64,000 bases of DNA from Elusimicrobiota bacterium (GTDB taxonomy: Bacteria; Elusimicrobiota; UBA5214; JBBAAG01): assembly GCA_041658405.1 (NCBI GenBank), contig JBBAAG010000002.1, forward strand, positions 453 to 64,452. Reading direction: 5' to 3'. The stretch's first letter is position 1. Each line of letters begins with the position of its first letter. Below are positions 2,749-63,287 of this stretch, piece after piece. The position numbers and the translations under genes are program-made. The notes below the pieces were generated by a model, which searched no databases, was not told the origin of the DNA, and saw nothing but the letters and a program-made list of their open reading frames with translations.

Positions 2749-2751
2749 CCT

Positions 2752-5340: not shown

Positions 5341-5423
5341 TATAGCATTAAAGGTAGTTAAAGTAATTCAACAGTTGTATTGAAAATATGTATAGAGCAT
5401 ACTGTAGAATATCGTGCAATACA

Positions 5424-5459
5424 AGTGTGAAATAAGTGTGCAAATTACACAGTTATTCT
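5424..5459 (+). promoter_or_regulatory. AGTGTGaAAt / AGTGTGCAAA boxes plus ACAGTTATTCT upstream of M23 copy 2
   Basis: Counterpart of 4611-4659. The two boxes are spaced 11 nt apart. Confidence 0.35.
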
Positions 5460-5631
5460 GCTAAACCGACAAAACATTATTTTTAGCCATCACAATATTT
5501 GTATTGTAATATAATCAAAATAACGATAATTGCGGTATACCCCACCCACTCTTTTGTGTATTGGCACGAATATTGCAACAATGGTTGTTCGAGAAACAAA
5601 AAGAAACTGGAAAGAAAGAAGGAGAAAGAAA

Positions 5632-21677: not shown

Positions 21678-22499
21678 TTACGTTCCGACCCGTACATCAC
21701 TGGTTAATTGTTTTAACAACGCAATTACTGATAGTACTGCGAGGTAGCTGGTCTTAGGATTATCCGGTGAAGGTATATTGTGAGTATGAGTTGTTATATC
21801 TCCGAATTCGCCGCTAATACATATTTCATGGGAGTTAATCTTGGTATCCGGATCAGCTACTATTTTTACTCTTGGCAAGTACCGGAACTCTGTCGCTGCA
21901 GCAAGTACTGCTGCGACGTTTATGTTGACCGGGAAACTTTTTGCTGCTTCATAAACAGTACCGCTGAATATGCATTTCGGGCTAGTGAGTTTAGATAAAT
22001 CAATTTTATGTTTCAAAACATACGGTGCGGAAGCTAAACTTGCAGGGCTTTTTGTGGTGGTAAGCATAAGGTTCTTGATTCCGCATACCGCCGCGGCTTT
22101 CACAGCGTCAACCCCGGCAATTGCTCCGGAAGGTAAGTGAAGTTTAACACCCTGTGCTTTGTATTTCTCAATAATTCGTTTGTTTAATAATAAACCGTTG
22201 ATGCTGATGCATATAGTAGGCGTCCTGTATTTTAACGCTGCCTGCGCGACTACCGGCACTGCTGCGGGTGATGCGCATTCAAGTACGAGATCACAAATGT
22301 GTACCGCTGAATCTATGCTTTTACATATTTTAATTCCTGGTACAGCCAGGCCTGCTGCCTGTTCCGGATTTATGTCGTACACTGCCGCGAGTTTGATCCC
22401 CGGCACTTTGCCGGTGATTATACTCTTAACCACCTGACGTCCGATATTACCGCAACCGATGATTGATAGTTTAGTAATAGTTTTGTTTATTTTGTCCAT
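21678..22499 (-). CDS. nadX: L-aspartate dehydrogenase
   Basis: N-terminal Rossmann motif GCGNIGRQV and a length of about 270 aa. It sits near nadA. Confidence 0.6.
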   Translation of the reverse strand: MDKINKTITKLSIIGCGNIGRQVVKSIITGKVPGIKLAAVYDINPEQAAGLAVPGIKICKSIDSAVHICDLVLECASPAAVPVVAQAALKYRTPTICISINGLLLNKRIIEKYKAQGVKLHLPSGAIAGVDAVKAAAVCGIKNLMLTTTKSPASLASAPYVLKHKIDLSKLTSPKCIFSGTVYEAAKSFPVNINVAAVLAAATEFRYLPRVKIVADPDTKINSHEICISGEFGDITTHTHNIPSPDNPKTSYLAVLSVIALLKQLTSDVRVGT

Positions 22500-25400: not shown

Positions 25401-25813
25401 TCATAAATTATTCCGCGGGTGTTAATAATAATATGGTACGCACATTTTTTGCCGTTAGATGGGTCAATCATTAGTTCTATACTATCATCACCCCAAACTC
25501 GTCCGTCACGCGCGGTAGTTTTACATATAATTTTTGAAGTATCCTCATCAGCGCAGATTAAACCAAAGTACAGGTTGGTACTGTCATAAACAGCATAGGC
25601 GGTGGTATGGATAGCTAACGGCGTTTTACTCGCGATATGTGATTTAAACCCGGTAAATACTGATGCGGCCTGCCATTCTTCCGGCCTGATTTTGCCGTCG
25701 AGTATAATTGTATTATCTTCTACCTGTGTAAGAATAGGAAAACCGTGTTTTGCAGCAGAAGCCGTACTGAATAATAGGGATAAAAATATAAATGATATTG
25801 GTATTAGTTTCAT
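22487..25813 (-). CDS. secreted protein with an N-terminal CBM9/DOMON-like domain and a GH42-like (beta-galactosidase trimerisation-type) C-terminal region
   Basis: 1108 aa with a signal peptide. CBM9-like N-terminus (ILDGKIRPEEWQAAS...LYFGLICAD...DDSIELMIDP), KYGAGKYGLP, GGTLVVFDPEAF. It is a paralog of 38159-40777. Confidence 0.55.
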   Translation of the reverse strand: MKLIPISFIFLSLLFSTASAAKHGFPILTQVEDNTIILDGKIRPEEWQAASVFTGFKSHIASKTPLAIHTTAYAVYDSTNLYFGLICADEDTSKIICKTTARDGRVWGDDSIELMIDPSNGKKCAYHIIINTRGIIYDEQIIAGGKDITWDSGAEIKTVIAKSLWYMELRIPFTSMNTTPQPGEVYNLFIGRNYPRAGKAVTNWPGIIGQVMDMEKYGEVLLTGKNKDIDIPAIYSRGAVLRGLTQPVEYNNFRISFPESGSNNFSCAVKIVDTTGNTIFLSSKTADTQNNKGEALKLFYPADIDGGTEAVFSYTSGITSYESRLPIKSPTPRVFQVYDELYTELLSTNTVGLAQNGAIYWFHDTSPALPPMCMQYGMDYIYADSFDILKNNKLLPISQSAALRGIRDTLKEKGLKCLLYPSPKRVPLNVPRLPDSAGTSNLSPEGLESYYSDLEKTLKENEDVIWGIYSGDEEIEQAITRLIKYFEVMKDTYAFIREVNTEIMNKYGAGKYGLPINIKDPARQRWVATYRWILDKYFVRQQRVLDIVKSIAPETKIVSWDPISTHKPFNFGYWTKYFDVMTTQLYPSLNSSRCEFGFLTKLVADLTGKETWPCCHVENYASTFTVEEIREYFSQVYRNGGTGIHLYLKDTIGVVAKTGGTYTLRFGSPVQNEVVMQTAQRAAEINKLQFPNTCDTAVLYSCDAYQSQGVTFSSEVEWIYTFLGPVCRAWFKFIDDNQITRGDINLNSYKTIIVPYAKYERREVVQKIQDYVRSGGTLVVFDPEAFMYDPLGDDTQIDYTQLFGCKLGNKLPGVNTETVNFKVFNNKELSVNERGYELLPNDNNTQTVAVYKNNSAAVITHSFGKGTVWMFGFNPLTQKNITDTAWKELFNLLCAKVGITTGHDIWRFKLPKYTLPQHLPPDGVCLTNNYIFWDSNKPAFTNTSKYTPGGMYKYSVTPDLIKDTTIQQKDGWLTFSDGKLTNRRAAPTAGDVDAGITKLNDWIVSWSTPVPVIEIEYRFPKTFEVNKVVLYYQGKIDELEVLAKNSSSPAGWNSAGQVTVDNTFTNYSRDVLKKTITFPAVMTDSCKLRVVTGKDVILKLSESEVWTK

Positions 25814-38158: not shown

Positions 38159-40777
38159 CTATTTTTTTGCGATATCCGGCAGCATAAACCGCCAGATCGG
38201 CAAGTTAAACTGTTCCCCGGCCGATATCTCAAGTTCTTTAATAACATCTTCCCAGCCGGGTACACCGCGGATTGACTGCGGGGAGAAAGGATTCGCTGCG
38301 AAGTACACAACTTTTCCTTTTCCAAACCCGCGAATCACCACACCAGGATTACCGTCGGATAACGTTGCCGCTACCGTCGCTTTCGGGTCTACCACTTTTA
38401 CGGTTACTGCTGTGTTGGTCCATCCGGTAGAACGGCGTTGGGGTTTGTATAACACAAACTTCTGCCCGGCTTTCATCGATTTCAACGCATCCGTCCCCGT
38501 GCCTACCAACGCATCACTCAGGTTCTCGTCCCCGACTTGCACGCCAAAAAGTTCTTCCTGATACTTCGCGAGGCTCGTTCCGTCCGGCGCTAGGGTAAAC
38601 GCTTTCGAATCCCCGACAACCAGTGTCCCGCCTGCCGAAGTCCAGTCGCGTAAACGTTTGACCACTTCTTCCCGCTGCAGCCACGCGTAAGGAACATAGA
38701 TAATTTTGTAGTCCTCAAGTTTATCCGCGCCATCCAATATTTTATCGTCGGCAATAAACCGGAACCACACGCCAAGTTTTTCGCCTAACCACGCATAAAT
38801 TGTGTAAAGTTCGTCTGCGTAGATCGAGTTAACTTCGCTGAGATTGGTGTCCTGGGATACAAAAATTGCGGTTGATGTTTTCTCAGGAAACTTAATTTTC
38901 TTCATCGTGGTAACAGTTTTTGATACGTGCTTCATCATTTCCCATCGCGGCGGGTCGGTTACCATCGGCGCGTCCGACGCGTAGTATTCTATGCATACCG
39001 CACCGGTCTTCATACACTGGCTTGCCCATTCGCGGATATCTTCCGGCAACGGTTTGTACCCGTCATAAAAAAATGCTTGCATAATAGTCCATACCGGCTT
39101 CCCACCGATATCGTTCAAAAATTTTGTGCCGAACCCGTGGTTATAAATCCCGCGGCCACGGGTACGCCCATGCGCTTCATCCGCCGATGTGGTGTACGGA
39201 TCGCATAACGCGAGGTCCATTGTTTGCGCCATTTTCCAGTAATCGTACATAGACAACCCGCCCATAAACCAGTAGTCGCAGGGTTGCCATAACGCTGTGG
39301 GGTCGATGGATTTCAGCGCGTCTCTCATCCGTATACGCGATTCTACAAATTTATCACTTGCCCAGCGGTTATATGCCAGCCAACTTAACAGCGTGTCAGT
39401 ATCTGGTTTGGTTGTAACAAATTTTGTTCCCTTAGCGACATTAGCTCCTTTTATTGATGGTACTGGGATACCGTATTTTCCGTAGCCATACTTTTCTTTG
39501 ACTTCCACCTGCGCGTTTATCCAAAACGGTATGATATCGATAAATTCAGGCCCTGCCGGGCTTAAAGTCGGCTCGTCCACTCCGCGGTAAACATATACTG
39601 CGCCAGTTTCTTTGTGGGTAGTAACAATATTTTTCAGTGCTTCAATTACGACGTCAACATAAACAGGATCCGCGAGGAATAGGCGTTTTCTCCCTCCAGC
39701 AGCTGGATGTATTACAGGCGAACCTTTCTTTTCTGCAACTGCCGCAACAGGTGAGGTTTCTACCATAAGCCATGATTTGGCATTATACTTTTTGCGGTAC
39801 TCATTGAAAATCGCGCTTGACCCGTGAGGGATCAGCATTCCGCATTCCACTTGTTGGTCAAGGTATGACCGTAAATGTTTTTCGTATGCTTTAGGATCTT
39901 TTTTAAACTGTTCCTGCATATACTGCGGCAATTGTGCGGTGCGTATGTCGTGGTTCCACGACGCGCAAGCGTAGTTTCCCGGTTCGTTGTACAACACTTC
40001 ATCAAAAACCGGACGGTCGCGTTTGACCCCGTAGTTCGTTGGTTCCATATCGCCGTAATCCAGGCGTTCAATATAGTTGTGTTTAAACGATAATGTGGCG
40101 AATCGTTCCGGCTGGTTAAACTTCCCGCGGATGGGAGACCATGTGCTTTGTTCCATAGAATTAGGTACCTGCCGGGTAAAGTTTATGCGGTACTCGTCGT
40201 TAATACCGCCAAAATCGGTGAACGGCATTACAAAGTCGGCTGTCCAAAAGGTTTTATCTATCTTTGTAGAAGTCTTAAAATTACCCTTCCACTTTTCATC
40301 CGATGTTTTCCCGGTTTGGTCTTCAGTAACAACTTCGTGGTTCACATAAACAACGTTTTTGGTGTTTAATACCCAATGAAATGATTCCAGCGGTGAGGGT
40401 GATAAAAATACTTCTACACAATCATCTTTCCAGACATTACTCCCGTTAATTGTTACCGTCGCTTCAATTTTTCTGGGTTCTGGTTCTTCGCATTTGAACT
40501 GAACAAACAACGCGTTATCGTCGTAGGTTACCCTTACTTCAGTCTGCCGTACTGCAAGGTTACCGCTGCCGTTATTAAGATAAAATCCTGTTATTGGTAC
40601 AATTTTATTCCAGTCCGCCTTTTGTCCTTTAGCCAGTTTTGTTATTCCTGTTTTATTAACAACCACGGCATCCGCTTTCTTCACTGCGATAGCTGTTTCC
40701 GCAAATAAGTGTGTTATCTGTGGATATAACAGTGCTGACGTAGCTGCAATAACAACAACGCGTATTAATTTGTTCAT
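38159..40777 (-). CDS. secreted CBM9/DOMON-like + GH42-like protein, paralog of 22487-25813
   Basis: 872 aa with a signal peptide. CBM9-like N-terminus (WNKIVPITGF...LFVQFKCEEPEP...DDCVEVFLSP), KYGYGKYGIP, GGTLVVGDSKAF. Confidence 0.55.
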   Translation of the reverse strand: MNKLIRVVVIAATSALLYPQITHLFAETAIAVKKADAVVVNKTGITKLAKGQKADWNKIVPITGFYLNNGSGNLAVRQTEVRVTYDDNALFVQFKCEEPEPRKIEATVTINGSNVWKDDCVEVFLSPSPLESFHWVLNTKNVVYVNHEVVTEDQTGKTSDEKWKGNFKTSTKIDKTFWTADFVMPFTDFGGINDEYRINFTRQVPNSMEQSTWSPIRGKFNQPERFATLSFKHNYIERLDYGDMEPTNYGVKRDRPVFDEVLYNEPGNYACASWNHDIRTAQLPQYMQEQFKKDPKAYEKHLRSYLDQQVECGMLIPHGSSAIFNEYRKKYNAKSWLMVETSPVAAVAEKKGSPVIHPAAGGRKRLFLADPVYVDVVIEALKNIVTTHKETGAVYVYRGVDEPTLSPAGPEFIDIIPFWINAQVEVKEKYGYGKYGIPVPSIKGANVAKGTKFVTTKPDTDTLLSWLAYNRWASDKFVESRIRMRDALKSIDPTALWQPCDYWFMGGLSMYDYWKMAQTMDLALCDPYTTSADEAHGRTRGRGIYNHGFGTKFLNDIGGKPVWTIMQAFFYDGYKPLPEDIREWASQCMKTGAVCIEYYASDAPMVTDPPRWEMMKHVSKTVTTMKKIKFPEKTSTAIFVSQDTNLSEVNSIYADELYTIYAWLGEKLGVWFRFIADDKILDGADKLEDYKIIYVPYAWLQREEVVKRLRDWTSAGGTLVVGDSKAFTLAPDGTSLAKYQEELFGVQVGDENLSDALVGTGTDALKSMKAGQKFVLYKPQRRSTGWTNTAVTVKVVDPKATVAATLSDGNPGVVIRGFGKGKVVYFAANPFSPQSIRGVPGWEDVIKELEISAGEQFNLPIWRFMLPDIAKK

Positions 40778-51062: not shown

Positions 51063-51194
51063 CATCATGATTTTTTTCTATTATCTTTCTTGTGGTTTTA
51101 GAAGCCTGTCCGTTATTTACCCGACATTGCTTTTGTGTTGTTATACAATATATTTTCGGAAGTAATGAACATTTTTGCGTAAAACGGTGTCAAT

Positions 51195-51782
51195 ATGTAT
51201 AGAGACAGACAGGATGGTGTGTTGGATAGTGGTGGGCAGGATAACTCAGCATTAATAACCGAAATCACGGGGTTTATCAAAGACGTGTATAACCTCGCGT
51301 ATAAGCTCATAGGTAACCGTTACGACGCGGAGGATCTTACACAGGACACACTGATGCAAGCCTGTAAAAAGTGCGGCAGTATAAAAGACCGTACAAAGAT
51401 AAGGCAGTGGCTGCATAAAATTACAGTTAACTTGTACAAAAACCGTGTGCGGTATGAGATTGTGAAAAAGTTTAGGATGATGGTCCCGCTGGACTTGTTT
51501 ACGGACAACGAGGATAAGTATGTGAGTAAACAGTTGATGCCTGTAGAACAAACGTTTGAAAAGGATGTTGAGACTAAAGACGTGGTACACCGCGCGCTCG
51601 CGCAGATGAAGCCAGACGAACGTATCCTCATTGTCCTCTGTGATATCGAACGGTACACCATGGGTGACGCAGCAAAAATGCTCGGCCTCTCTCGAGGTAC
51701 AGTGCAGCCGCGGGTACATTCCGCACGGGAAAGTTTTCGTAAAATCGTTCTCTGTGAAGAAGCAAAGAGCGAGGTAAAATAA
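51195..51782 (+). CDS. ECF-type RNA polymerase sigma factor
   Basis: Region 2 (AEDLTQDTLMQA...WLHKITVNLYKNRVR) and region 4 (ILIVLCDIERYTMGDAAKMLGLSRGTV). Confidence 0.8.
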   Translation: MYRDRQDGVLDSGGQDNSALITEITGFIKDVYNLAYKLIGNRYDAEDLTQDTLMQACKKCGSIKDRTKIRQWLHKITVNLYKNRVRYEIVKKFRMMVPLDLFTDNEDKYVSKQLMPVEQTFEKDVETKDVVHRALAQMKPDERILIVLCDIERYTMGDAAKMLGLSRGTVQPRVHSARESFRKIVLCEEAKSEVK

Positions 51783-51788
51783 GTTTTT

Positions 51789-52970
51789 ATGGACAAAAAT
51801 ATTATGTGCGCAAAAAAGTATAAGAAACTCATATCGTGGTATATCGACGGTGAGATAATCCTGGCGCAACAGCGTGAAGTGGAAGCTCATATCGCCACGT
51901 GTACTGAATGTAAAGAGTACATGGAACAACTACGTAAAATGAAAGATATGCTAAGTATTACCGCGGTTGCAACACCTCGCGCGGGGTATGAGGATAGGCT
52001 TAAGCGATTGATAACCAAACGTTTTGATACTTCTGCCGTTGCCAGAAAGGGAAAACGCGTACCGTTTCAACTGTTCCCGCACGGTATTATTGCAGGCGCA
52101 ACGGTATGCGCGGCGATACTGTTTATATACTCTAAACTACTATACATCCCGCAGCGTTCGCGGATAACTCCGCAAATCGTGAATAAAACGGATGTTGCGC
52201 AAATAAACAAACAACCCGTGGCGGTGTCTACCGGAAAACAGGAACACGTAGTATACCGCGTGGATACTGTTGCAGAAACGCTGCCCGTACCAACGATACC
52301 AGTAAATATTGCAAATGCGCGTAAGGATACGCAGAAAGTAACGACAAGTTTACGTTTACAGGATAATTATAATACTGGGATTACAACGGGCATACATACG
52401 GAAACGGTTGCGGTACCGTTAGCGTCGGAAATAGAGAAAAAAGTTTCGCCGTCAATACCGCCGGACAAAATGGTTGAATACGCGCCAATCGTAAGGTCGT
52501 TGGTAGATAAAGGTATGGGCGAACAAACCGCTGCGCGTACCGTCAAGGACGCGGTTACTCACGGGTACAACGCGGAACAGCTTGGGTGTATCGTTAACAC
52601 ACCGGCGAAAAACGTGGATGTAAAATCTGCGTTAGCGAAGGGTAAACAACAACCACAAAAGTTTGAGTATATAGAAACCGCACCGAACCCATTTACGCCG
52701 AACAACGACGGGGTGAACGATACCGCGCACTTTCATTATCGCGGAGCAACTACTGATGCAGACAGCGTAACACCGGCAACAACAGAAAATAAACTCCGGA
52801 TCTACACAATTCCCGGACGGTTAGTGCGAACCGCTAATATCTTCGCAGGAACCGTTCCTGCCTGGGATGGGACTGACGACACGAGCAATCTTCTAGACGG
52901 CGGGATTTACGTTTTTGTCCTTACCGTTGGGGAAAACACAGTACGCGGTACTGTAATCCTTGCAAAATAA
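51789..52970 (+). CDS. anti-sigma factor (zf-HC2, single TM) with a C-terminal CHU_C/T9SS type-B-like domain
   Basis: N-terminal HIATCTECKEYM, a TM helix at about residues 95-115, and C-terminal NPFTPNNDGVND...IYTIPGRLV...WDGTDDTSNLLDGGIYVFVL. Confidence 0.65.
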   Translation: MDKNIMCAKKYKKLISWYIDGEIILAQQREVEAHIATCTECKEYMEQLRKMKDMLSITAVATPRAGYEDRLKRLITKRFDTSAVARKGKRVPFQLFPHGIIAGATVCAAILFIYSKLLYIPQRSRITPQIVNKTDVAQINKQPVAVSTGKQEHVVYRVDTVAETLPVPTIPVNIANARKDTQKVTTSLRLQDNYNTGITTGIHTETVAVPLASEIEKKVSPSIPPDKMVEYAPIVRSLVDKGMGEQTAARTVKDAVTHGYNAEQLGCIVNTPAKNVDVKSALAKGKQQPQKFEYIETAPNPFTPNNDGVNDTAHFHYRGATTDADSVTPATTENKLRIYTIPGRLVRTANIFAGTVPAWDGTDDTSNLLDGGIYVFVLTVGENTVRGTVILAK

Positions 52971-53380: not shown

Positions 53381-54085
53381 ATGCAATCTAAGGTGTTGCT
53401 CGTTAACACTAACATAAAAGAAATAGAAAAGTATACCGAACTATTTCTGCGGAACGGCTGTTACTGCGCAGTAGCGTTTACCGGAGCAGAAGCGATCCGC
53501 AAACTCATACGGATGCGCTACGATATTATCTTACTAAACCACGCGTTAGCGGACACAAACGCCCCGGCGGTGGTGTCCGTGATGAATAAACAAAACTTAC
53601 GCGGCGAGGCCGTTGTCATTGTTCTGGGTAATTTTAGGGATAAAAAGTATCGTGAACGGTTGTACAACATGGGCGTAACGGACTATATCACGAAACCTGT
53701 GAGTGAAGAGGAAATCGTTGCGGTACTATGCCACCGTATGAAAACTGTTCGTGAGGAAAAGAAAACTGTAAGGTTATTCAAAGAGTCCGGGACTGCGCAG
53801 ATATGTAAAAAAACGGTTCAATTAACGAGTCAAGAGTTTAGGCTGCTAGAACTTTTCGATCGCTACCCGGGTTATATCCTAGCCCGCGAGGTGATACTCA
53901 AACATTTGTATCCAAACGACAATGTGTTCCTGTCGGACGAGTCCCGCGCATTGGATATGAAAGTAATGCGGTTACGTCAAAAGATTGGTGATGACCATGG
54001 AAAAATAATCGAGGCCGTGTATGGGAACGGATACAGATATGCCCCGGATAACATCGACGTGAAAATGTATACGGGGGGGGGGTAG
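53381..54085 (+). CDS. atypical OmpR-family regulator (pseudo-receiver + winged-helix trans_reg_C)
   Basis: The receiver-like N-terminus lacks the acidic pocket (LLVNTN) and has the phospho-site Asp replaced (IILLNHALAD). The C-terminal OmpR-type wHTH reads LTSQEFRLLELF...ALDMKVMRLRQKIGD. The ORF ends in ...YTGGG*, encoded by a G10 tract. Confidence 0.65.
   Translation: MQSKVLLVNTNIKEIEKYTELFLRNGCYCAVAFTGAEAIRKLIRMRYDIILLNHALADTNAPAVVSVMNKQNLRGEAVVIVLGNFRDKKYRERLYNMGVTDYITKPVSEEEIVAVLCHRMKTVREEKKTVRLFKESGTAQICKKTVQLTSQEFRLLELFDRYPGYILAREVILKHLYPNDNVFLSDESRALDMKVMRLRQKIGDDHGKIIEAVYGNGYRYAPDNIDVKMYTGGG
54073..54082. repeat. G10 homopolymer at the 3' end of the OmpR-like regulator gene
   Basis: Counted directly. 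It encodes the terminal GGG plus part of Thr, immediately before TAG. Confidence 0.8.
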
Positions 54086-54187
54086 ATAATATATATAGTT
54101 TGCGTTGTTACAATTCTGTTACAAATTTGTTAGGTATGTAACATTGCTTTTCCGCCAAGAAGTTGTTATTAATTCTTGTCATAAGGT

Positions 54188-55927
54188 ATGAAAACAATAT
54201 TTGACCATGATAAGATAAATATCGCAGTGTTTCAACCACTGTTTTTTCATGAAATTGGGGAAACAATGAACGATATATTGCTGAAGAACGGGTACTTATC
54301 AAGCTTATCTAACAACGTTCAAGACGATTGCGTAAATATTGTATTGGGTTCTGTAAATAAAGGCAGCACCGAGAGAAAACGTAACGCGGTTAATATCATG
54401 TATAATATGGAGCAATTCCCGTCATTAGAAGAAACTAACGCACACACCCAGCAAAACTACGCAAGATTTAAAGATATTATAAATTCTTACGATTATATAT
54501 TAGATTCAGATCAATCAAACGTTGAGTTTTTAAAGCATAACGGTTTTCAAAACGCGTATTACGCGCCTATAGGGTACCATCCGAGGTTTGAGGTGGGTTT
54601 GTCAGAAACTCCAGAAACGCTCGACCTGTTATTCCTTGGTGTGCTTTCGGGCCGCAGGATGAAAATCTTGGAGAAACTATACAAAAAGTATGATGGGTTA
54701 GCGTTATTCAACGTGTTTGGTGAAGAGCGCGCAAAAAAAGTGATGTCCGCTAAAATTAATCTTAATCTTCATTTTGATGACAACCGCCGGTACTTTGAAT
54801 CGCATCGTATCATAATGTTAATGCTGTGCAACAAAAGATTTGTGTTATCCGAACCGGTAGAAAATTGTGCGCCATTGATCAAAGATGAACATTTTGTTGT
54901 TACGGATCAGGACAACCTTGATTCTGTCATAGGATATTACCTAAAAAATGAGATTGAACGCCGCCAAATCGGATGTTCAGGGTATGAGTATGTAAAATCC
55001 CACTTGCGGTTCTCAGACACCTTTATGACCGCATTTGATGAACTTGGGAAAAGTCATAAACAGGTATTCAGCGTACCGACACAAAACCGTAAAACTTGTG
55101 CGGTGTACCGCGTATTCAACGAAGAAGACTATATTGAACACTCTCTGAAGTCTATATATAACCACGTAGATAATATAGTAGTATTTCTTGGAAACAAACC
55201 TTGGAACGGCGAGGCGGTAAAACCCGATCGTACGGAAGAAATCATTGTCAATTATCCGGACATCCAAAACAAGATCGTGGTAGTGAAATATGATGCCGGA
55301 AGTATAAATGCCGCGCATCCATACTCCGGGGAAGTGAAGCTTAGCAATACCGCGCTGAACATAATCCGTAAATACTTTCCCGAAATGGGATATGTATTAT
55401 TAATTGATGGGGATGAGGTGTATGAAGAGAAACATATAACCAATCTATTAAAGTATGCGTATACAAATACAGAAGATGTATCCTTTTATTCCCGGTGGTA
55501 TACATACTGGAAAACACCGGGATTTAGGATAGATCCTATGGAACCGTATTCTCCGCTAGTATTGTTTAAACCTAACAGTGAAACCTTATTTACCGGCCCG
55601 AGAGTTATTAATGATAAGGAGCGGGAGAGAAACATTCTAAATCCCGAGGATGTTTTAGTACACCATTTCTCTTACGCGAAACCGGACGACAAAATCCGGC
55701 AAAAAATACTGTCATTCTCTCATTGTAGAGAAATAGTGGACGGTTGGTATGAAAACGTGTGGAGAAAATGGGACGAGGATAATACGCTCACAAACCTTCA
55801 TCCCACTCATCCGGAGTGTTATAAACACGTGGTAGAGGTCGATATAAAAAATATCCCGGTATTTATGGCTGACCATCCTTTGATAAATACCGACCCTTAT
55901 GTATATCTTGGAAAAGGGGAAAAATAG
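54188..55927 (+). CDS. two-domain putative glycosyltransferase
   Basis: 579 aa. It has a GT1-like (DUF3880-type) segment followed by a GT-A-like segment (CAVYRVFNEEDYIEHSLKSI..., LLIDGDEVYEE). Confidence 0.5.
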   Translation: MKTIFDHDKINIAVFQPLFFHEIGETMNDILLKNGYLSSLSNNVQDDCVNIVLGSVNKGSTERKRNAVNIMYNMEQFPSLEETNAHTQQNYARFKDIINSYDYILDSDQSNVEFLKHNGFQNAYYAPIGYHPRFEVGLSETPETLDLLFLGVLSGRRMKILEKLYKKYDGLALFNVFGEERAKKVMSAKINLNLHFDDNRRYFESHRIIMLMLCNKRFVLSEPVENCAPLIKDEHFVVTDQDNLDSVIGYYLKNEIERRQIGCSGYEYVKSHLRFSDTFMTAFDELGKSHKQVFSVPTQNRKTCAVYRVFNEEDYIEHSLKSIYNHVDNIVVFLGNKPWNGEAVKPDRTEEIIVNYPDIQNKIVVVKYDAGSINAAHPYSGEVKLSNTALNIIRKYFPEMGYVLLIDGDEVYEEKHITNLLKYAYTNTEDVSFYSRWYTYWKTPGFRIDPMEPYSPLVLFKPNSETLFTGPRVINDKERERNILNPEDVLVHHFSYAKPDDKIRQKILSFSHCREIVDGWYENVWRKWDEDNTLTNLHPTHPECYKHVVEVDIKNIPVFMADHPLINTDPYVYLGKGEK

Positions 55928-55930
55928 AAA

Positions 55931-56602
55931 ATGCCAAAAGTTGCGATCTTGATACCGTCATACGACTCGCAGTTACATGTGGACATTGTCTATCGTCTGG
56001 TAGAACTCAGCCGTAACGGCTATGAAATTATCAATGTAAACGGTTATGCGAATATTATTGAAGCCAGGAATAACTGTATATATCGTATGATGACGAGGGA
56101 AAAAGAAAGTAACACGCGGTACGACTATTTCATGTTTATAGACTCAGACATCGTGTTCGATACCCGCTATATAGACAAAATGCTCGCACAAGACAAATCG
56201 GTAGTTACGGGATTGTATTTCACAAAAAACGGCGGGCATAAACCGTTAGCGGGTTATTGGGGCAGCATGAATGAAACCGGGCAACTGATGTATCTTTCGA
56301 AAAAGGAAGTGTTGTCAAAAATGTTGGTAGAAATAGACTGGTGCGGGCTCGGGTTCACGATGTTCAAACGTGACGTTTTGGATAATATTCAATACCCTTG
56401 GGTAGAAGCAAAGATTATTGAGCTCAAACAACCGGTAAATACCGGTGTGTTCACGCTTAGCCAAGAAATATTGTCCGAAGATTTATCTTTCATAAAAAAG
56501 ATGGGAGATAACGGAGTAAAACTGTACTGCGATACAGAGCTGTTCTGTGAACACATAGGTATCCAGTATTTCGGGTTGAAACAGTATTTAGAAAATAACT
56601 AA
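55931..56602 (+). CDS. putative GT-A fold glycosyltransferase
   Basis: VAILIPSYD N-terminus and DSD (FIDSDIVFD) motifs. Confidence 0.5.
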   Translation: MPKVAILIPSYDSQLHVDIVYRLVELSRNGYEIINVNGYANIIEARNNCIYRMMTREKESNTRYDYFMFIDSDIVFDTRYIDKMLAQDKSVVTGLYFTKNGGHKPLAGYWGSMNETGQLMYLSKKEVLSKMLVEIDWCGLGFTMFKRDVLDNIQYPWVEAKIIELKQPVNTGVFTLSQEILSEDLSFIKKMGDNGVKLYCDTELFCEHIGIQYFGLKQYLENN

Positions 56603-56618
56603 TGGAGGTAATGTATTT

Positions 56619-57677
56619 ATGGCAGTAACTTTGTATTTAGAAGGCGGGGAATGGGACTCCGGGCATCTGAAACTCGGATCAAACCATTTATGGGTAGATG
56701 CTAACGGTAAGCTAAGGATAAAAACAAGTACACCCAGTAAAGATTTTGACGGGGAAGCATTAAATACACCATTTGATCGCAGCCAGTGTGTGCCTAAATT
56801 GGCGTATCAACTAGGATATGAATTCAAGTCTAGAAAAAACGTTACAGTTGGTGTCGGTAATCCTCAGTTTGGAATGGCGTTTGACGGGGAAAATATCTGG
56901 TATTCAATACCAACTACAAATAGCCTTCACAAAATAGATATTTCTACCAATAGTATAGTAGGAACTGTTTGTGTAGGTGAAGATCCAATGAGAATGGTTT
57001 ATGACGGGCAATATATTTGGGTATGTAATTATAACACTTCCTATATCTCCAAAGTACAAGACGGAACTCCTCCTACAGAAATTGCGACCGTTAGTGTTGG
57101 GGGAGCTCCTAGGTTCATAGAATTTGATGGCACCTATATTTGGGTATCATGTCAAGACGGTGATGCATTATATATTGCTAAAGTAAACGCTTCAACAGGA
57201 CAATTAGTATCCACAATATATACTGGCGGGTCGCCTACAGGATTGATATTTGATGGAAACTATATTTGGGCAACAAATTATCAAGCAAATCGTGTTATTA
57301 AAATCAATCCTAGTGACGATTCAATACTTGCGACAATTACTATGGGCGGAGATCCTGTTGATGCCGCATTTGACGGTAGTTATATATGGGTGTCCCATGG
57401 GAATACACATAAGAAATTATGGAAAATAGATCCAGTAAGTAACGTTGTCATAACGAGTATTAATATTGATAATCGATTAGAAGATATCTGTTTTGACGGG
57501 CAGTATTTATGGGTAGCAAATACAAGCAATCAAGCAGTAACAAAAATTGATGTTGATCGAAACGATATTATTGCTACCTTTTGTGTTGGAGATAATCCAT
57601 ATCAAATAGCATTTGATGGGCATAGCATGTGGATTTCCGGTGGTGTTGGTAACAACATTTCGAAAATACTTAGATGA
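56619..57677 (+). CDS. 7-bladed beta-propeller protein (YVTN-type repeats, FDGxYIWV motif)
   Basis: Seven repeats of about 42 aa, each with FDG.(Y/N)IW(V/A) then K(I/V)(D/N). Confidence 0.6.
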   Translation: MAVTLYLEGGEWDSGHLKLGSNHLWVDANGKLRIKTSTPSKDFDGEALNTPFDRSQCVPKLAYQLGYEFKSRKNVTVGVGNPQFGMAFDGENIWYSIPTTNSLHKIDISTNSIVGTVCVGEDPMRMVYDGQYIWVCNYNTSYISKVQDGTPPTEIATVSVGGAPRFIEFDGTYIWVSCQDGDALYIAKVNASTGQLVSTIYTGGSPTGLIFDGNYIWATNYQANRVIKINPSDDSILATITMGGDPVDAAFDGSYIWVSHGNTHKKLWKIDPVSNVVITSINIDNRLEDICFDGQYLWVANTSNQAVTKIDVDRNDIIATFCVGDNPYQIAFDGHSMWISGGVGNNISKILR

Positions 57678-58741
57678 TTTCTTTTTGTATTATTGTAAAA
57701 AACGAAGAAAAGTATTTAGAGCGGTGTTTGGATAGCATTAAAACACTATCGGACGATATAATTATTGTTGACACCGGTTCTACCGACAACACCAAACAAA
57801 TCGCGGCGAAATACACCGACAATATCTACGATTTTGTATGGACTAACAACTTCGCCGATGCGCGGAATTATTCTATCAGTAAAGCCACTGGCGACTGGAT
57901 CATGTGGTTAGACGCGGATAACTATTTTGACCCCGAGCAAGCGGAGAAACTTAAACGTATCATGAAAAACCCGCATGTTATACGTAACGACGTAATAAAC
58001 GTGGCGATCCGCGATTTGAACTCAAAGATTGTATGGTCGGTCCCGAAAATATTCCGTAACAACGTTGGTATTAGGTTCAAAAATCCAATACACGAAACGC
58101 TTGATTATAAAGGCAAAAATATTGTTGCCGTAGATGTATATTTAAACCACGACCGTCCAGGTGCTGTAGACCGCGAGGAACGGTACTTCAAAATGTTACA
58201 GGAACAGTACGCGGTGGATAAAGACGACGTGTCAACAAACTTCTATCTCGCAAGTTACAATCTTAGGAGAAAGAACCATGATACTGCTGCTATGCATTAC
58301 CAAAACATGTTAAAAAGCGCGGAAATGCAAAAAGAAGCGTTTACCGGCCTGAGCCGGATAAGTTATTACAAAAAGAACTATACGGACGCGCTTGAATACG
58401 CGTATAAGTCGTTGATGCTGGATAACTCGTACCCCGATATTTATGTGTTGATCGCGAATATTTATGACGAACTTGGGCAAAAACTTAACGCTATCACAGC
58501 GAACAAAATAGCGTTACGGTTGGACAAGAATTTTAGCACAAATACCATTACCAACGAAGAAGCGTACAACTACGTACCGTGGGTCAACCTCGCGAAACTG
58601 TACGTTGACATTATGGCAATCGACCGCGCGATTGAGAGTTATAATGAAGCGTTAAAGTACGCGGATACCCAAGAAAAGAAAAATATAGTACTGAAAAATC
58701 TTGAGCTAATAAAAACCAATTTTAAGAAACTGGAAGTATAG
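57674..58741 (+). CDS. family-2 glycosyltransferase with C-terminal TPR repeats
   Basis: ISFCIIVKNEEKYLERCLDSI, IIVDTGSTD, WLDADNYF (DxD). The C-terminal half is TPR-like. Confidence 0.65.
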   Translation: MISFCIIVKNEEKYLERCLDSIKTLSDDIIIVDTGSTDNTKQIAAKYTDNIYDFVWTNNFADARNYSISKATGDWIMWLDADNYFDPEQAEKLKRIMKNPHVIRNDVINVAIRDLNSKIVWSVPKIFRNNVGIRFKNPIHETLDYKGKNIVAVDVYLNHDRPGAVDREERYFKMLQEQYAVDKDDVSTNFYLASYNLRRKNHDTAAMHYQNMLKSAEMQKEAFTGLSRISYYKKNYTDALEYAYKSLMLDNSYPDIYVLIANIYDELGQKLNAITANKIALRLDKNFSTNTITNEEAYNYVPWVNLAKLYVDIMAIDRAIESYNEALKYADTQEKKNIVLKNLELIKTNFKKLEV

Positions 58742-58773
58742 AAAACTAAGAAAGGTTAAGGAGGAAATGTTTT

Positions 58774-59436
58774 ATGTCAAACAAAGTTGGGATAGGGACG
58801 GAAACGCCGTTAAGTCAACTGGATGTCAACGGTTCTGTAGCAATCGGTACGTATGCCGGTGCTAATGCGGGTCCGAGTAATGGTATGATAGTTAGTGGGA
58901 ATGTTGGTGTCGGAACAAACAATCCCGTAGAAAAATTGCAGGTTGCGGGAAATATAAAGATTACCGGTTACAAAAATCTGTACTTTATCGACGGGGGGTA
59001 TACACATGCAATAGGGCAATACCAAGAAGCTTCAGATTGGCTAGCCTTTGGCTCGGCAAAATTTCGATGGTTTGGAGGCCCTGATTTTTCATCTGATCAG
59101 GTAATAGCGTATATGGATAGCAACTCTTTTGTGTTAAGTCAAAGTTTGTCGGTAAAACAATCCGCTACGTTTAATTATGATAAAGGCAACTATGATTTTA
59201 ATGTTAAAGGTGATAACGATGATAATTTGATATTTGCAGACGCAAGTGCTGATAAGGTCGGGATTGGGACGAGTTCACCAGATGGGAAACTAGATATAAA
59301 TGGTTCATTGGTTTTGAGAACAGCATCTACACCCAGTAATCCGCCTAGTGGTACTGTTGTATTGTGGTTTGATGGAACAGATCTAAAAGCAAAAAATAGT
59401 AGCGGAGATACAAAGGTAATTGCTGATTGGTCATAA
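58774..59436 (+). CDS. phage tail-fibre-like protein (VGIGTxxP..LDVNG repeats)
   Basis: KVGIGTETPLSQLDVNGSVAIG, VGVGTNNPVEKLQVAGNIKI, KVGIGTSSPDGKLDINGSLVL. There is no signal peptide. Confidence 0.5.
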   Translation: MSNKVGIGTETPLSQLDVNGSVAIGTYAGANAGPSNGMIVSGNVGVGTNNPVEKLQVAGNIKITGYKNLYFIDGGYTHAIGQYQEASDWLAFGSAKFRWFGGPDFSSDQVIAYMDSNSFVLSQSLSVKQSATFNYDKGNYDFNVKGDNDDNLIFADASADKVGIGTSSPDGKLDINGSLVLRTASTPSNPPSGTVVLWFDGTDLKAKNSSGDTKVIADWS

Positions 59437-59556
59437 CAATTCATATGTTTTTGTAATTTCATAAGATATTGTTTAATATTCTTTGAACATTTTAGTAAAA
59501 TTAAGTGTCTGTCTATATGAGAGCGTAAAGGTTTGCAATCATATGGGGGGGTACTT

Positions 59557-62250
59557 ATGAGACATGTAATATTGGCACTTATAACACTAATGTGTTCAGT
59601 TCAATTATGTAATAGTGAAAAATGGGAAATAAATGATATAGTTGCAGCTGATCCACAATCAAGTATCTCAATGAATATTGATTTAAATGATGAACTTAGT
59701 TTTGCTTATATAGACAAAATTACTCATCAAATGAAAGTATTAAATGAACAAAATAATATTTGGCAAAATATTTATGATGATACAAGTACAATAACCCCTC
59801 ATATTAGTGTTAAGCTAGATTCTTTTTTACTCCCACATATACTATACCTGAAAAAATTTAGCGACACAAGTTATGAGTTATATTATTCTTCATTTAATGG
59901 AACAGCATGGTTTCAAAATTTTATTACATCAGGTAATTTTAGTTCAAACACTTTACAAGCACTAGATTTGGATACTAATAATCGTCCACACATAATATAC
60001 GAAGATGAAATTTCATCAAAATTAGTTTATGTGTTTCAGAGTACAAATTCATGGGAATTTAGGAATGTTTCAAAATTCCAATCTGGTGGTTCATGTATAA
60101 AAGTTGATTCACATGGAATTACACATATTTGTTATACAACAGGTGGAAATCTGTATTACGTGAAGTACTTCGATGGAGTATTTCAGAGTAGTAATTCAAT
60201 TTCTGGCACATTCACAGATGTACAGAATTGTTCTTTGATCCTAGATATTAATGATAATCCGCATATTTGTTTCAATAGTCGAAACGGTCTTATTTATACA
60301 ACAAATATTAACAACAATTGGAGTTATCAAGTGGTAAACACAATTCCAGATAGCGGATATTATTCAAACATCTGCATTGATAAACAACAAAGAATTCTTA
60401 TATCTTACTGTATATTAGGCATGAAAAATAGTCTTTATTATGCAACTTTAAATAATAGTTCATGGATTAATCAATTTATTGATTCAATAAATATTATGCC
60501 GTCAATTGTGTCGGATTCCTTTAATCTTCCAATTATTGGGTATTATAATGAGGGTATAATAAAATATGCACGATACGATGCTTTTTCTCCTTCTAAAATT
60601 GAAAATATTTATAGTAATATTATTGAAAAGCCCGGGGAAGCTTTATTATTATGGATCTCTCCTGGGGATGATGGTACGACGAGCACACTCGCGAATGCAA
60701 AGTACAGGATAGATTATTCCACGTATTCTGGCTACCAATTTTCTACTTCTACTTACAGGATCGAAATCCCAACTACGACGCCAAACCAAATGGCACAAGC
60801 ATACACCCTTACCGGGTTGACCGGCGGGACGACGTATTACTTCGCGATGTACACAATTGACAATGCTGACAATATCTCAGAACTTTCGAACACCACAACA
60901 AGTTATGTAAAATCTTTGGTACTTGACCATTACGAAGTATCAATACCCACAACGCCCGTCACTACCGGCACAAGTTTTTCTATAACAGTTACTGCGAAGA
61001 ACAACGAAAACGATACGTTGCCCAATTACACCGGCGCAGTCGCGCTCCAACCTGTTCTTGCGTCGAACGATACACAATCCGGTAGCGGGGTGTTAGGCGT
61101 TGTCCAAGCAACGCTAGTCAACGGTACGGTAACGATTGCCAACCAAACCTACACAAAAGCTGAGAATATCAAACTCAAAGTTACCGACGCGGATGGAAAG
61201 ACAGGTGTTAGCAACCAGTTGACGGTTACTGCGAGCAGTTATGGCGCGTACATGACGTTAACCGCGAACCCGCAGGCTGCGATCAACGGGCAAACAGTGA
61301 CGCTTACAATAGATGCTAAAGACTATTATGGTAACGCTGTAGTAAACATCCCGTTAACGATGGAAGTAATCACCGGCGCTGGCGTGTTTGGAACAACCAC
61401 AACATATACTGACACTACCGGCCGGGGAACATCAACGTTTGTTCCATCATTATCCGGTACCGGAGAGTGTGTCCTGCGCGTAACGAGTCTGGGGTTGGCT
61501 TCCGTAGAGGTGAGGTTGTATGTATCAGTTTTAATCGTCGCGTCGGACGGCGGAGTAGTCATCGCGTCGGACGATCCTAAGACACTGATACGTATCCCAC
61601 CGTGGTTGTTGAAAACTGACTCAGAGGTAAATATTAAACGCAAGACCGACACTTCGGCTGGTGAAGGGCAGGAAGTGGAAGTTGTAGCGAAAGAGCGTGG
61701 AACGGGGAATGATATCACCGACCTTGACGGTACGGTTGAGCTAACAGTAGGCTACCAAGTTGATTCTAACGGTAAGGTTACGAATACTGACGTCGTGGAA
61801 TCCGACGCTGCGTCCGTTCTGGCTTTGTATTACCATGACGGCGTGCAATGGCAAAAACTTGATGGGAGTACAGTAGATACTGCGAACAAAACGGTGACAG
61901 TGAAAACGTCGCACCTGAGTCGGTATGCGTTACGCAGCAGCGGTACCGCAGCGCGGTCCACGAGTTTCCGGTTTACCGGCATCGGCCCGAACCCGTTCAC
62001 CCCGAACCCTGACGGTATATACGACCGCGTGTATTTTTATTATGAGAACCCCGAGAATAAAGACATTGAGGTGAGGATATACAAGCTTACCGGTGCGCTG
62101 GTACGTGTGATCACAGCAACCTCCGGTGTTGTGCCGTACTGGGACGGGCGGAACACAACCGGCGATATGATGGACGGCGGGGTGTATTTATATGGACTAA
62201 AAGTGGGGGGGAACGCGGTGGTTAAAGGGACGGTGGTGTTGGGGAAATGA
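59557..62250 (+). CDS. large secreted Ig-like repeat protein with a T9SS type-B (CHU_C) C-terminal domain
   Basis: Signal peptide MRHVILALITLMCSVQLCNS and Ig-like repeats. The C-terminus reads NPFTPNPDGIYD...IYKLTGALV...WDGRNTTGDMMDGGVYLYGL. The start is placed at the Met after the G-rich RBS; the tracked ORF uses TTG at 59533. Confidence 0.7.
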   Translation: MRHVILALITLMCSVQLCNSEKWEINDIVAADPQSSISMNIDLNDELSFAYIDKITHQMKVLNEQNNIWQNIYDDTSTITPHISVKLDSFLLPHILYLKKFSDTSYELYYSSFNGTAWFQNFITSGNFSSNTLQALDLDTNNRPHIIYEDEISSKLVYVFQSTNSWEFRNVSKFQSGGSCIKVDSHGITHICYTTGGNLYYVKYFDGVFQSSNSISGTFTDVQNCSLILDINDNPHICFNSRNGLIYTTNINNNWSYQVVNTIPDSGYYSNICIDKQQRILISYCILGMKNSLYYATLNNSSWINQFIDSINIMPSIVSDSFNLPIIGYYNEGIIKYARYDAFSPSKIENIYSNIIEKPGEALLLWISPGDDGTTSTLANAKYRIDYSTYSGYQFSTSTYRIEIPTTTPNQMAQAYTLTGLTGGTTYYFAMYTIDNADNISELSNTTTSYVKSLVLDHYEVSIPTTPVTTGTSFSITVTAKNNENDTLPNYTGAVALQPVLASNDTQSGSGVLGVVQATLVNGTVTIANQTYTKAENIKLKVTDADGKTGVSNQLTVTASSYGAYMTLTANPQAAINGQTVTLTIDAKDYYGNAVVNIPLTMEVITGAGVFGTTTTYTDTTGRGTSTFVPSLSGTGECVLRVTSLGLASVEVRLYVSVLIVASDGGVVIASDDPKTLIRIPPWLLKTDSEVNIKRKTDTSAGEGQEVEVVAKERGTGNDITDLDGTVELTVGYQVDSNGKVTNTDVVESDAASVLALYYHDGVQWQKLDGSTVDTANKTVTVKTSHLSRYALRSSGTAARSTSFRFTGIGPNPFTPNPDGIYDRVYFYYENPENKDIEVRIYKLTGALVRVITATSGVVPYWDGRNTTGDMMDGGVYLYGLKVGGNAVVKGTVVLGK

Positions 62251-63287
62251 GTATGATTATGTCGACGGTATATACCGCTCACTCAATAATCGTTTCGCAG
62301 ACGAAACGATTGAAAGCGTTCGCGGCATATATCGTCGACAAACAATTAATAATTTTATTTTTAGTATTGTTATTTACCCCATTACAAAACGGGGAGTGCG
62401 CGTTTGTGTATACGGACTACAGTGCGCGGGGGCTCGGGATGAACGGCGCGATCTGCACGGTTACCGGCGTTACCGCCGACACTGCGGGTGTGTATTACAA
62501 TCCGGCGTTAACCGCAATCAGCGGGGGGAACGAGAACACCTCGCGTCCCCGGGTGAGTATGTCGTACGAATCGTTGTATCCTGGCGTGATGGACAGTTTA
62601 TGGTTAGGTACGCTGGTGTACACGCATCCGGTGAACCGCATAGTGGGAACGTTTGGCGTGAACTACCTCCAGTTTGGTTCGAGTTTGTATAGCGAACAAG
62701 TTGCGGGACTTACCTATGCGCGGGAAATGCTATATTTTGAACCGTTAAAACTGGGTGTTACAGTGAAAACATTAACGAAAAGTTATGGGCAGACAGGGTA
62801 TACCAACCGCGACCCTACGTTTGCCAACGCAATGACCGCTACGGGTGTAAGCTACGACGTAGGGCTGACCTACGCAACACCGTTATCTGGCCTTGTGGCA
62901 GGCGCGTCTGCGCGTAACGTAGATCGTCCGAATATTAAGCTGGTGAAACGCGACATTGTTCCTGCGGAGTACCGCGTAGGTCTGGGCTACCAAATGGAAA
63001 CAGTATCGACCGAACTTGTGTATTATTGCACGACCTCTGCGGGTACGGACGCTGCGTTGTTGCTGGGCAGCGAATGGTGGATATTAAGAAACGTGTTTGC
63101 TTTCCGCGCAGGCTGCGGGTATGGCGTAAGCGAGTACAAGTCTGTATCTTTTGGGTTGAGTTACCGGTTTAGCATCCCCGGGATGAAAACGTTTATTACA
63201 CTCGATTACGGGTACGGCTATCAGTTCAACGGTGCGATGGATAATACCGTTGGGAACAACCTCGCGACGTTAAACATACAGTTTTGA
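62247..63287 (+). CDS. PorP/SprF-family T9SS outer-membrane beta-barrel
   Basis: N-terminal YTDYSARGLGMNGAICTV...GVYYNPALTAISGG resembles the PorP/SprF start (QFSQYM.N...NPA). It is rich in alternating aromatics and ends with an aromatic C-terminus. It overlaps the cargo gene by 4 bp. Confidence 0.6.
   Translation: MSMIMSTVYTAHSIIVSQTKRLKAFAAYIVDKQLIILFLVLLFTPLQNGECAFVYTDYSARGLGMNGAICTVTGVTADTAGVYYNPALTAISGGNENTSRPRVSMSYESLYPGVMDSLWLGTLVYTHPVNRIVGTFGVNYLQFGSSLYSEQVAGLTYAREMLYFEPLKLGVTVKTLTKSYGQTGYTNRDPTFANAMTATGVSYDVGLTYATPLSGLVAGASARNVDRPNIKLVKRDIVPAEYRVGLGYQMETVSTELVYYCTTSAGTDAALLLGSEWWILRNVFAFRAGCGYGVSEYKSVSFGLSYRFSIPGMKTFITLDYGYGYQFNGAMDNTVGNNLATLNIQF

Follow-up and report, generated by a model that had tools for sequence, protein, structure and literature searches.

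A membrane-anchored anti-sigma factor with a type-B-like C-terminal domain and its association with an ECF sigma factor, a cargo protein and an outer-membrane barrel in Elusimicrobiota

The DNA analysed here (the window) is a stretch of 64,000 nucleotides (nt) of contig JBBAAG010000002.1 (assembly GCA_041658405.1) from an Elusimicrobiota bacterium, which encodes TolC, DegP/Q and MltA as markers of a diderm cell envelope. Positions 51195 to 52970 are occupied by the genes of an extracytoplasmic function (ECF) sigma factor and of an anti-sigma factor of 393 amino acids (aa), as had been predicted originally from the DNA; both open reading frames (ORFs) were recovered and their families confirmed. 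The anti-sigma factor ends in a C-terminal domain (CTD) of the same family as the CTD of a large protein encoded further downstream, here referred to as the cargo, and the cargo gene is directly followed by the gene of an outer-membrane beta-barrel (Table 1).

The sigma factor passed the family models Sigma70_r2 (43.4 bits, cut-off 24), Sigma70_r4_2 (39.8 bits, cut-off 25.7) and TIGR02937 (77 bits, cut-off 42.9) and, comprising only regions 2 and 4, belongs to the ECF (group 4) sigma-70 factors. It shares 24-36% identity with the sigma factors of related loci (denoted by L numbers in the following). Its translation probably starts at the TTG at 51222 rather than at the ATG at 51195, since the -10 element of the upstream promoter ends 3 nt before the latter. 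The TTG is preceded by AGGA at a distance of 7 nt, and a start at this position results in a leader of about 30 nt matching that of the relatives.

The zf-HC2 model matched residues 9-41 of the anti-sigma factor with 27.1 bits (cut-off 22.2), and a full-length AlphaFold (AF2) model placed the helical anti-sigma domain at residues 5-56. Its N-terminal HxxxCxxC motif, the sigma factor gene directly upstream and a single transmembrane helix identify the protein as a membrane-bound zinc-binding anti-sigma (ZAS) factor, and it most likely holds its partner sigma factor in the cytoplasm via the zinc-finger domain. The canonical N-terminus and the one transmembrane helix had been foreseen in the original prediction, as had the periplasmic location of the C-terminus, which is borne out by the topology since the zinc finger must be cytoplasmic to bind the sigma factor and no signal peptide is present. 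A FecR domain (PF04773) was not detected in the protein at E-values up to 1.

The transmembrane helix is followed by a disordered linker of about 100 residues, which varies in length and sequence across the anti-sigma family with poorly conserved alignment columns and which may be long enough to reach the outer membrane. No relatives could be detected for the subsequent three-helix segment, which is also absent from the cargo proteins.

Table 1. Predicted features of the sigma/anti-sigma, cargo and barrel genes in the window, followed by the accessory genes (pLDDT, predicted local distance difference test).
Feature	Position	Strand	Basis or remarks
ECF-type promoter upstream of sigma factor gene	51166..51191	+	TGAACA-N15-GTGTC
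ECF sigma factor gene	51195..51782	+	Sigma70_r2, r4_2 and TIGR02937
Anti-sigma factor gene, 393 aa	51789..52970	+	zf-HC2, one transmembrane helix, CHU_C tail
Cytoplasmic anti-sigma domain (HxxxCxxC zinc finger), aa 1-57	51789..51959	+	zf-HC2; helices with pLDDT 74-91
Single transmembrane helix, aa 96-118	52074..52142	+	Kyte-Doolittle peak 2.05; AF2 helix 98-118
Disordered periplasmic linker rich in V/T/K/P/Q, aa 119-222	52143..52454	+	pLDDT ~30
Three-helix segment, aa 225-270	52461..52598	+	G242 and A248 invariant; pLDDT 92-96
C-terminal CHU_C-type beta-sandwich, aa 296-393, ending GTVILAK	52674..52967	+	PF13585; fold; identity to cargo tail
Second copy of ECF-type promoter	59484..59509	+	exact match with same spacing; 24 nt before cargo ORF
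Cargo gene, 905 aa	59533..62250	+	signal peptide, variable head, ~450-aa Big_1/fn3-like region, CHU_C-type tail (aa 814-905); family matches
Outer-membrane beta-barrel gene, PorP/SprF-PorV/PorQ superfamily	62247..63287	+	overlaps cargo stop codon; signal peptide, terminal Phe
Accessory: small protein, 111-128 aa	52985..53371	+	31% identical to L009 gene 2673-2993
Accessory: OmpR-family response regulator	53381..54085	+	Response_reg and Trans_reg_C
Accessory, lineage-specific: glycosyltransferases, YVTN beta-propeller, GT2-TPR protein, 220-aa repeat protein	54188..59436	+	family matches

Residues 298-382 of the anti-sigma factor matched the CHU_C model (PF13585) with 34.1 bits and thus passed the Pfam cut-off of 27, whereas TIGR04131 gave 21.1 bits and failed its cut-off of 35, so that the predicted domain is accepted by only one of the two curated type-B models. 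The tail of the cargo scored just under both models (25.4 bits for CHU_C and 23.4 bits for TIGR04131). The kinship of the two tails postulated in the original prediction was supported by their alignment, in which the last 100 residues of the anti-sigma factor and the last 100 residues of the 905-aa protein share 41% identity over 103 columns (pairwise E-value 9e-29).

The anti-sigma CTD reaches the last residue of the protein, forms a beta-sandwich like the solved CTDs and keeps the positions conserved in the cargo CTDs (F302, T303, P304, D307, F315, W359, G361, G372, Y374) together with the terminal GT..LAK. A cleavable Sec signal peptide is present in the cargo but absent from the anti-sigma factor, which has an internal transmembrane anchor instead. 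The possibility that the anti-sigma CTD is an artefact of gene calling was rejected, since the domain is conserved up to the final residue in about ten different sequences.

Residues 220-393 were also modelled with a deeper alignment (mean pLDDT 86.8). In a Foldseek search against the PDB the top matches were the CTDs of PorU, PorZ, NucA and RemA from the T9SS (type IX secretion system), with TM-scores (normalised to the target) of 0.66-0.72, and those of NucA and RemA are translocon-bound in the matched structures. The Fn3 domains of the streptococcal C5a peptidase and FlgD followed next.

The family of this anti-sigma factor was obtained by an exhaustive HMMER search of 1.84 billion representative sequences, since word-indexed searches with the single protein or the family profile were insufficient and returned just the protein itself and members already known. 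According to the HMMER search there are nine further full-length relatives of 331-374 aa, with 23-36% identity in the family alignment. All of them contain one transmembrane helix, a linker of variable length, the three-helix segment and a CTD conserved to its end GT[IV][IV]LAK. H34, C38 and C41 of the zinc finger are invariant across the family, and an ECF sigma factor gene is located directly upstream in all ten members.

The 393-aa protein is identical to MFA5857602.1 of an Elusimicrobiota bacterium, which is annotated as a gliding motility-associated C-terminal domain-containing protein, and the relative OGS20073.1 originates from Elusimicrobia bacterium RIFOXYA2_FULL_39_19. The family is small, and its members all come from uncultured organisms. 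Among the 150 best matches no other protein combined zinc finger, transmembrane helix and CTD. A scan of a genome collection yielded matches to the CTD only and no further anti-sigma factor, and a metagenome scan supplied variant loci but no new independent members, with L018, L019 and L025 duplicating L006, L012 and L011, respectively.

Furthermore, L020 (1721-2491) and L021 (11907-12956) encode anti-sigma homologues which keep the transmembrane helix and the CTD directly downstream of a sigma factor gene and lack the first ~50 residues holding the HxxxCxxC motif, owing either to a truncated anti-sigma domain or to a mis-called start codon. The model of the three-helix segment matches the homologue of L021 but not that of L020.

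Two further loci encode sigma-pathway regulators of other architectures. In L036 a single ORF of 1009 aa (2466-5495, minus strand) comprises an ECF sigma factor (regions r2 and r4_2, aa 17-185), a transmembrane helix (~aa 221-240), at least 10 NHL propeller repeats and, with 38.4 bits for FlgD_ig and 26.7 bits for Por_Secre_tail, a CTD resembling type A. Its neighbours are a further CTD gene and, at 505-1995, a barrel-TPR gene. The ORF is an independent occurrence and thus the second regulator of the sigma factor pathway to bear a CTD. In L046 (6549-12589), which belongs to another lineage, the genes of a CTD cargo and of a PorP_SprF protein of 763 aa (46.8 bits) are directly preceded by those of an ECF sigma factor and of a ZAS-type anti-sigma factor whose periplasmic domain is of the TPR kind and which has no CTD. 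CTD-barrel pairs are thus under ECF control with other sensor domains, too.

The promoters link the pair to the cargo in the window. The motif TGAACA-N15-GTGTC, which precedes both the sigma factor gene and the cargo gene, has exactly two matches in the window (both strands, 128 kb) compared to an expected number of 0.03, and no shuffled sequence reached two. AAC at -35 and CGT or GTC at -10 are typical of ECF promoters. An Rfam search of the window gave no matches.

Equivalents of this motif were found upstream of the sigma factor genes of L005, L006, L008, L009, L012, L014 and L020, and in six related loci (L005, L006, L009, L012, L014, L020) the promoter is duplicated. L006 carries TGAAC-N15-ACGTTTA at the same two positions (two matches versus 0.01 expected), and L012 and L020 carry TGAAAAT-N14/15-ACGTC[TC]AA in front of the sigma factor gene and in front of the Kelch cargo. 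In L009 and L014, which are identical copies, and in L005 a locus-specific version of the motif occurs upstream of the sigma factor gene and again downstream of the anti-sigma factor gene. L015 and L021 possess a single promoter ahead of an operon of cargo, barrel, sigma factor and anti-sigma factor. Since the promoter is duplicated before both transcription units, we conclude that the sigma factor presumably autoregulates its own expression and drives the cargo-barrel operon. The original prediction of a functional tie between the pair and the downstream cargo is thereby strengthened.

The association with cargo and barrel is conserved beyond the window. A large beta-propeller protein with the same CTD adjoins the pair in all seven loci with sufficient flanking sequence (the window, L006, L011, L012, L015, L020, L021), in three different gene orders, and a homologous barrel gene was detected wherever the sequence extends far enough (the window, L006, L011, L012, L015, L021). 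In the window the sigma and anti-sigma factor genes are followed by eight accessory genes, the cargo and the barrel. L006 shows the order sigma factor, anti-sigma factor, 990-aa SBBP-propeller protein with CTD and barrel, while in L012 a response regulator and other genes separate the pair from a 747-aa Kelch protein with CTD and the barrel. In L020 the sigma factor and anti-sigma-like genes are followed by an insertion sequence and a Kelch cargo, at which the contig ends. Cargo and barrel precede the pair in L015 (Kelch/Big_1 protein with CTD, barrel, sigma factor, anti-sigma factor), in L021 (cargo, barrel, sigma factor, anti-sigma-like protein) and in L011, where the end of a cargo CTD precedes barrel, sigma factor and anti-sigma factor.

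The cargo of the window, whose translation probably starts at the Met of MRHVIL at 59557 to give the 897 aa assigned by the gene caller, shares 43-76% identity with its counterparts in L006, L012, L015 and L021 over 443-509 aa. The members of this family share a C-terminal region of ~450-500 residues beneath differing N-terminal propeller heads (SBBP, Kelch or unassigned), which suggests a common stalk with exchangeable heads.

The barrels start with AAFQY.[ED]VGAR..GM.GA after the signal peptide and end with Phe. On its own the barrel of the window gave no PorP_SprF match and only weak matches to TraF_2 (17.3 bits) and PorQ (17.5 bits); it shares 34% identity with the barrel of L015 over 312 aa (E-value 2e-43). 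The barrels of L011 (30 bits), L012 (29 bits) and L015 (50.1 bits) pass the Pfam model PorP_SprF (PF11751, cut-off 22.3). Of 76 loci with this kind of CTD, which the metagenome scan supplied for comparison, 35 carry such a barrel, in each of the 35 within 150 nt of the CTD gene. The pairing of CTD and barrel is therefore a general rule for this CTD type.

These findings suggest that the cell gauges the state of the route by which the cargo is exported or anchored before it makes more cargo. With the four-gene set recurring in independent loci, the surveillance or feedback circuit of the original prediction is the best reading of the locus. In its specific form, which we hold with moderate confidence, sigma factor, anti-sigma factor, cargo and barrel would constitute a four-part cassette in which the anti-sigma tail mimics the sorting domain of the cargo and couples the activity of the sigma factor to a receptor recognising such tails. 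Molecular mimicry seems the simplest explanation because the sensor domain is paralogous to the sorting domain of the regulon and because the cargo is always paired with a barrel of the CTD-binding type. In Bacteroidota, type-B CTDs bind their cognate PorP/SprF-like barrels (PMC9143113, PMC12618676).

Starting from the architecture, the paralogy of the CTDs, the gene set and the shared promoters, we infer the binding partner, the mode of release and the response as follows. The anti-sigma factor would sequester the sigma factor in the cytoplasm by its zinc finger and cross the inner membrane once, its flexible linker of ~100 residues carrying the three-helix segment and the decoy CTD across the periplasm. 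The decoy may be recognised by the same receptor as the cargo CTD, most likely the cognate PorP/PorV-like barrel or the export route which that barrel serves. It would engage this receptor in competition with or in place of the cargo, which would determine how stable the anti-sigma factor is or which conformation it adopts. The most likely mode of release would be regulated proteolysis, a route used by other membrane-bound anti-sigma factors, and the freed sigma factor would transcribe its own operon and the cargo-barrel operon. Engagement of the decoy may switch the sigma factor either on or off, the sign of the response not being readable from the sequence.

Several observations weigh against this proposal, the first being the breadth of the superfamily to which the domain belongs. 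In the comparison of sequence profiles the order of the fold matches was reversed, with the C5a peptidase (E-value 6.6e-8) and FlgD (2.8e-6) ahead of PorU (0.017) and the type-B CTD of GhpA (0.029). The motif set PNGDG...WDG...G.Y.Y appears to be that of a broad beta-sandwich superfamily, and since it is spread across FlgD, the Fn3 domains of C5a peptidase and internal tandem repeats, sequence similarity alone is no proof of a role in sorting. The domain also occurs in 5-11 internal tandem copies, repeated every 105-210 residues, in giant proteins (P0007, P0009, P0033, P0035, P0058, P0147), some of which end in barrel-like strands with a final F/Y and others in OmpA-like tails. In L015 (197-1360) it is found twice at the N-terminus of an OmpA-family protein, where it is expected to be periplasmic. 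The CTD-type domain is a general envelope module and not solely a C-terminal signal.

This breadth, together with the TIGR04131 score below cut-off, is what would be expected if the tail were a generic Ig-like sensor, a beta-sandwich shuffled onto the anti-sigma factor for the perception of an unrelated envelope ligand (glycan, peptidoglycan or protein), and if its likeness to the cargo had no meaning. We consider this unlikely. The domain is strictly C-terminal, has the CTD-specific terminal strand GT[IV][IV]LAK in common with the cargo, and finds its best fold matches among T9SS CTDs; furthermore, the conserved cargo and barrel genes and the sigma-dependent promoter on the cargo operon tie the regulon to CTD biology.

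Other points against mimicry of the cargo lie in the proteins themselves. The CTDs fall into different subtypes, with PNGD.[VI]ND and WDGTN in the anti-sigma factors and PNPDG.YDR and VPYW.GR in the cargo proteins, and the mean identity amounts to 44% within the anti-sigma class, 53% within the cargo class and 41% between the classes. Both the subtypes and the identities indicate a specialised decoy CTD that is not exchangeable for that of the cargo. By a small margin, the cargo CTD most similar to an anti-sigma CTD is that of its own neighbour (per locus 46 vs 38-43, 46 vs 37-43, 46 vs 44-45 and 39 vs 33-39%), but an argument for co-evolution from this preference was rejected since the margin is too small and confounded by shared ancestry. 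In addition, mimicry leaves the three-helix segment unexplained.

The assignment of the receptor is affected as well. Neither the window nor the 10 kb that follow the barrel gene contained a T9SS core gene, and a literature search retrieved no paper linking Elusimicrobiota to the T9SS. The barrels scored below the trusted NCBIfam cut-offs (PorV_fam 61-75 vs 90; PorP/SprF TIGR03519 32-61 vs 90.55), which makes them distant members of the PorP/PorV superfamily. The coupling of SprF to GldK occurs via a twin-cysteine periplasmic C-tail (PMC12635249), and no tail of this type is present in the six barrels examined, all of which end at the Phe of the terminal strand. Given the lack of a reported T9SS in Elusimicrobiota, the T9SS machinery named as partner in the original prediction has to be regarded as an assumption.

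Two more explanations are variants of the same coupling idea. The anti-sigma CTD might sense unexported cargo in the periplasm by direct contact between CTDs, for example by exchange of beta-strands, which would amount to feedback on an export backlog. The identity of the two tails, their control by the same sigma factor and the slight proximity of the anti-sigma CTD to the cargo CTD of its own neighbour are in line with such a contact, but that proximity can be explained by shared ancestry alone and the published partner of type-B CTDs is a PorP-like barrel (PMC9143113), so that we regard this explanation as rather improbable. Still less probable is a checkpoint of the FlgM type, in which the export machinery would tug at the periplasmic portion of the anti-sigma factor or take it off, lead to intramembrane cleavage of the protein and allow the cargo to be made once the route is assembled: a domain of the secretion-signal kind at the C-terminus behind a long flexible linker and the logic established for FlgM and sigma-28 would fit, but Elusimicrobiota have yielded no translocon or motor genes (window plus 10 kb and literature), the protein is held by a membrane anchor and carries no cleavable signal peptide, and the difference from the mimicry proposed above lies just in the release step.

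Mimicry of the cargo by the anti-sigma tail can also be extended to a more far-reaching idea, which we consider doubtful. The barrel alone might export or anchor the cargo without a canonical T9SS in self-contained four-gene cassettes of the Elusimicrobiota, and the anti-sigma factor might gauge the occupancy of the barrel by mimicry, such a cassette being a minimal self-regulating relative or forerunner of the shuttle step of the T9SS. If this were true, Elusimicrobiota, which are placed outside the FCB group, would hold a relative or forerunner of the T9SS shuttle.

The accessory genes between the pair and the cargo differ between the loci. The L009 counterpart of the small protein encoded next to the anti-sigma factor follows the second ECF promoter of that locus. 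The receiver domain of the OmpR-family regulator contains NTN instead of DD, ILLN at the position of the phospho-acceptor Asp and LGN in place of Thr, while the Lys is kept, and no kinase gene adjoins the regulator gene; the protein looks as if it acts independently of phosphorylation. Its place in L012 is taken by a response regulator of the AraC type whose Asp residues are intact. Three direct repeats (TGTTACA / TGTTACA / TGTTAGG with 11-nt spacing) followed by an inverted TGTAACA are located at 54106-54142 (plus strand), in the intergenic stretch ahead of the glycosyltransferase gene at 54188, and are a candidate site to which the neighbouring OmpR-type regulator may bind.

In the lineage-specific block, weak counterparts (in L012 and L021) were found just for the 223-aa gene and the GT2-TPR gene. 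The glycosylation genes were rejected as part of the cassette core because they are absent from L006, L011 and L015 and because the sigma-type promoter lies downstream of them. For the same reasons their part in the glycosylation/cargo cluster of the original prediction was not supported. The products of 58774-59436 (plus strand) and of L012 10872-12035, both encoded between regulator and cargo genes, contain repeated VGIGT..P...L.V.G motifs reminiscent of tail fibres and gave no family match.

Elsewhere in the window two paralogues of 1108 and 872 aa (22487-25813 and 38159-40777, both on the minus strand) combine an N-terminal CBM9 with a GH42-type beta-galactosidase trimerisation domain. The Elusimicrobiota-type contig of L006, which also carries the sigma factor, anti-sigma factor, cargo and barrel genes, encodes at 400-4916 a FliG_C-like protein, MotA/ExbB, two MotB/OmpA proteins and a TPR protein beside a FecR-domain protein, and this cluster may represent a stator-like motor.

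Sorting domains are usually seen as passive address labels, a view extended by PorA, which showed that they can act as regulatory ligands. The anti-sigma family described here would be a natural hard-wired version of this principle, in which the anti-sigma factor itself bears the address label of the cargo under its control. Four genes and two promoters would form a compact and testable design for matching the output of large surface proteins to the capacity for their export or anchoring. Furthermore, CTD-barrel pairs of the type-B/PorP kind and their regulation outside the phyla with a reported T9SS bear on the origin and modularity of that system.

With regard to known systems, the locus is a new combination of two known kinds, ZAS/ECF signalling and CTD-barrel pairing, the latter of which was previously unreported in Elusimicrobiota. 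In the T9SS pairs of Bacteroidota (SprB-SprF, PG1035-PorP, Fjoh_3952-Fjoh_3951) a large CHU_C-type surface protein is likewise encoded beside a small barrel of the PorP/PorV superfamily; unlike these, the barrels and CTDs of the Elusimicrobiota are distant from them, remain below the NCBIfam cut-offs and have no twin-cysteine tail. No regulator of Bacteroidota is known to carry a CTD as a fused domain, and a literature search retrieved no account of a CTD-bearing anti-sigma factor.

The closest precedent is the PorA-PorXY-SigP system of Porphyromonas gingivalis, in which a CTD input ends at an ECF sigma factor for secretion-related genes (PMC12152298, PMC7712824). The CTD of PorA is a periplasmic regulatory ligand for PorY and SigP, even if tethered to the inner membrane (PMC12152298). 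However, PorA is a separate type-A cargo which acts via a histidine kinase and a response regulator, whereas in the window a type-B-like CTD forms part of the anti-sigma factor itself and the adjoining cargo-barrel pair is the regulon.

The FecI-FecR-FecA system is similar in that its anti-sigma factor, seated in the inner membrane, extends through the periplasm to a barrel of the outer membrane, whose operon is driven by the sigma factor. The system of the window differs from it by the absence of a FecR domain, of a TonB-dependent transducer and of an N-terminal signalling domain, and by an anti-sigma factor with a ZAS zinc-finger N-terminus and a sensor domain that would mimic the cargo. In the RsgI-SigI system of cellulosome clostridia the extracytoplasmic sensor of the anti-sigma factor is, as here, a paralogue of a module present in the proteins controlled by the sigma factor, although this system is Gram-positive, employs carbohydrate-binding modules and belongs to the sigma-I/RsgI family, which is unrelated to ECF/ZAS. 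With FlgM and sigma-28, finally, the locus shares what resembles an export signal on the anti-sigma factor, through which expression could be gated by the export apparatus; FlgM is soluble and exported as a whole, whereas the anti-sigma factor of the window is anchored in the membrane.

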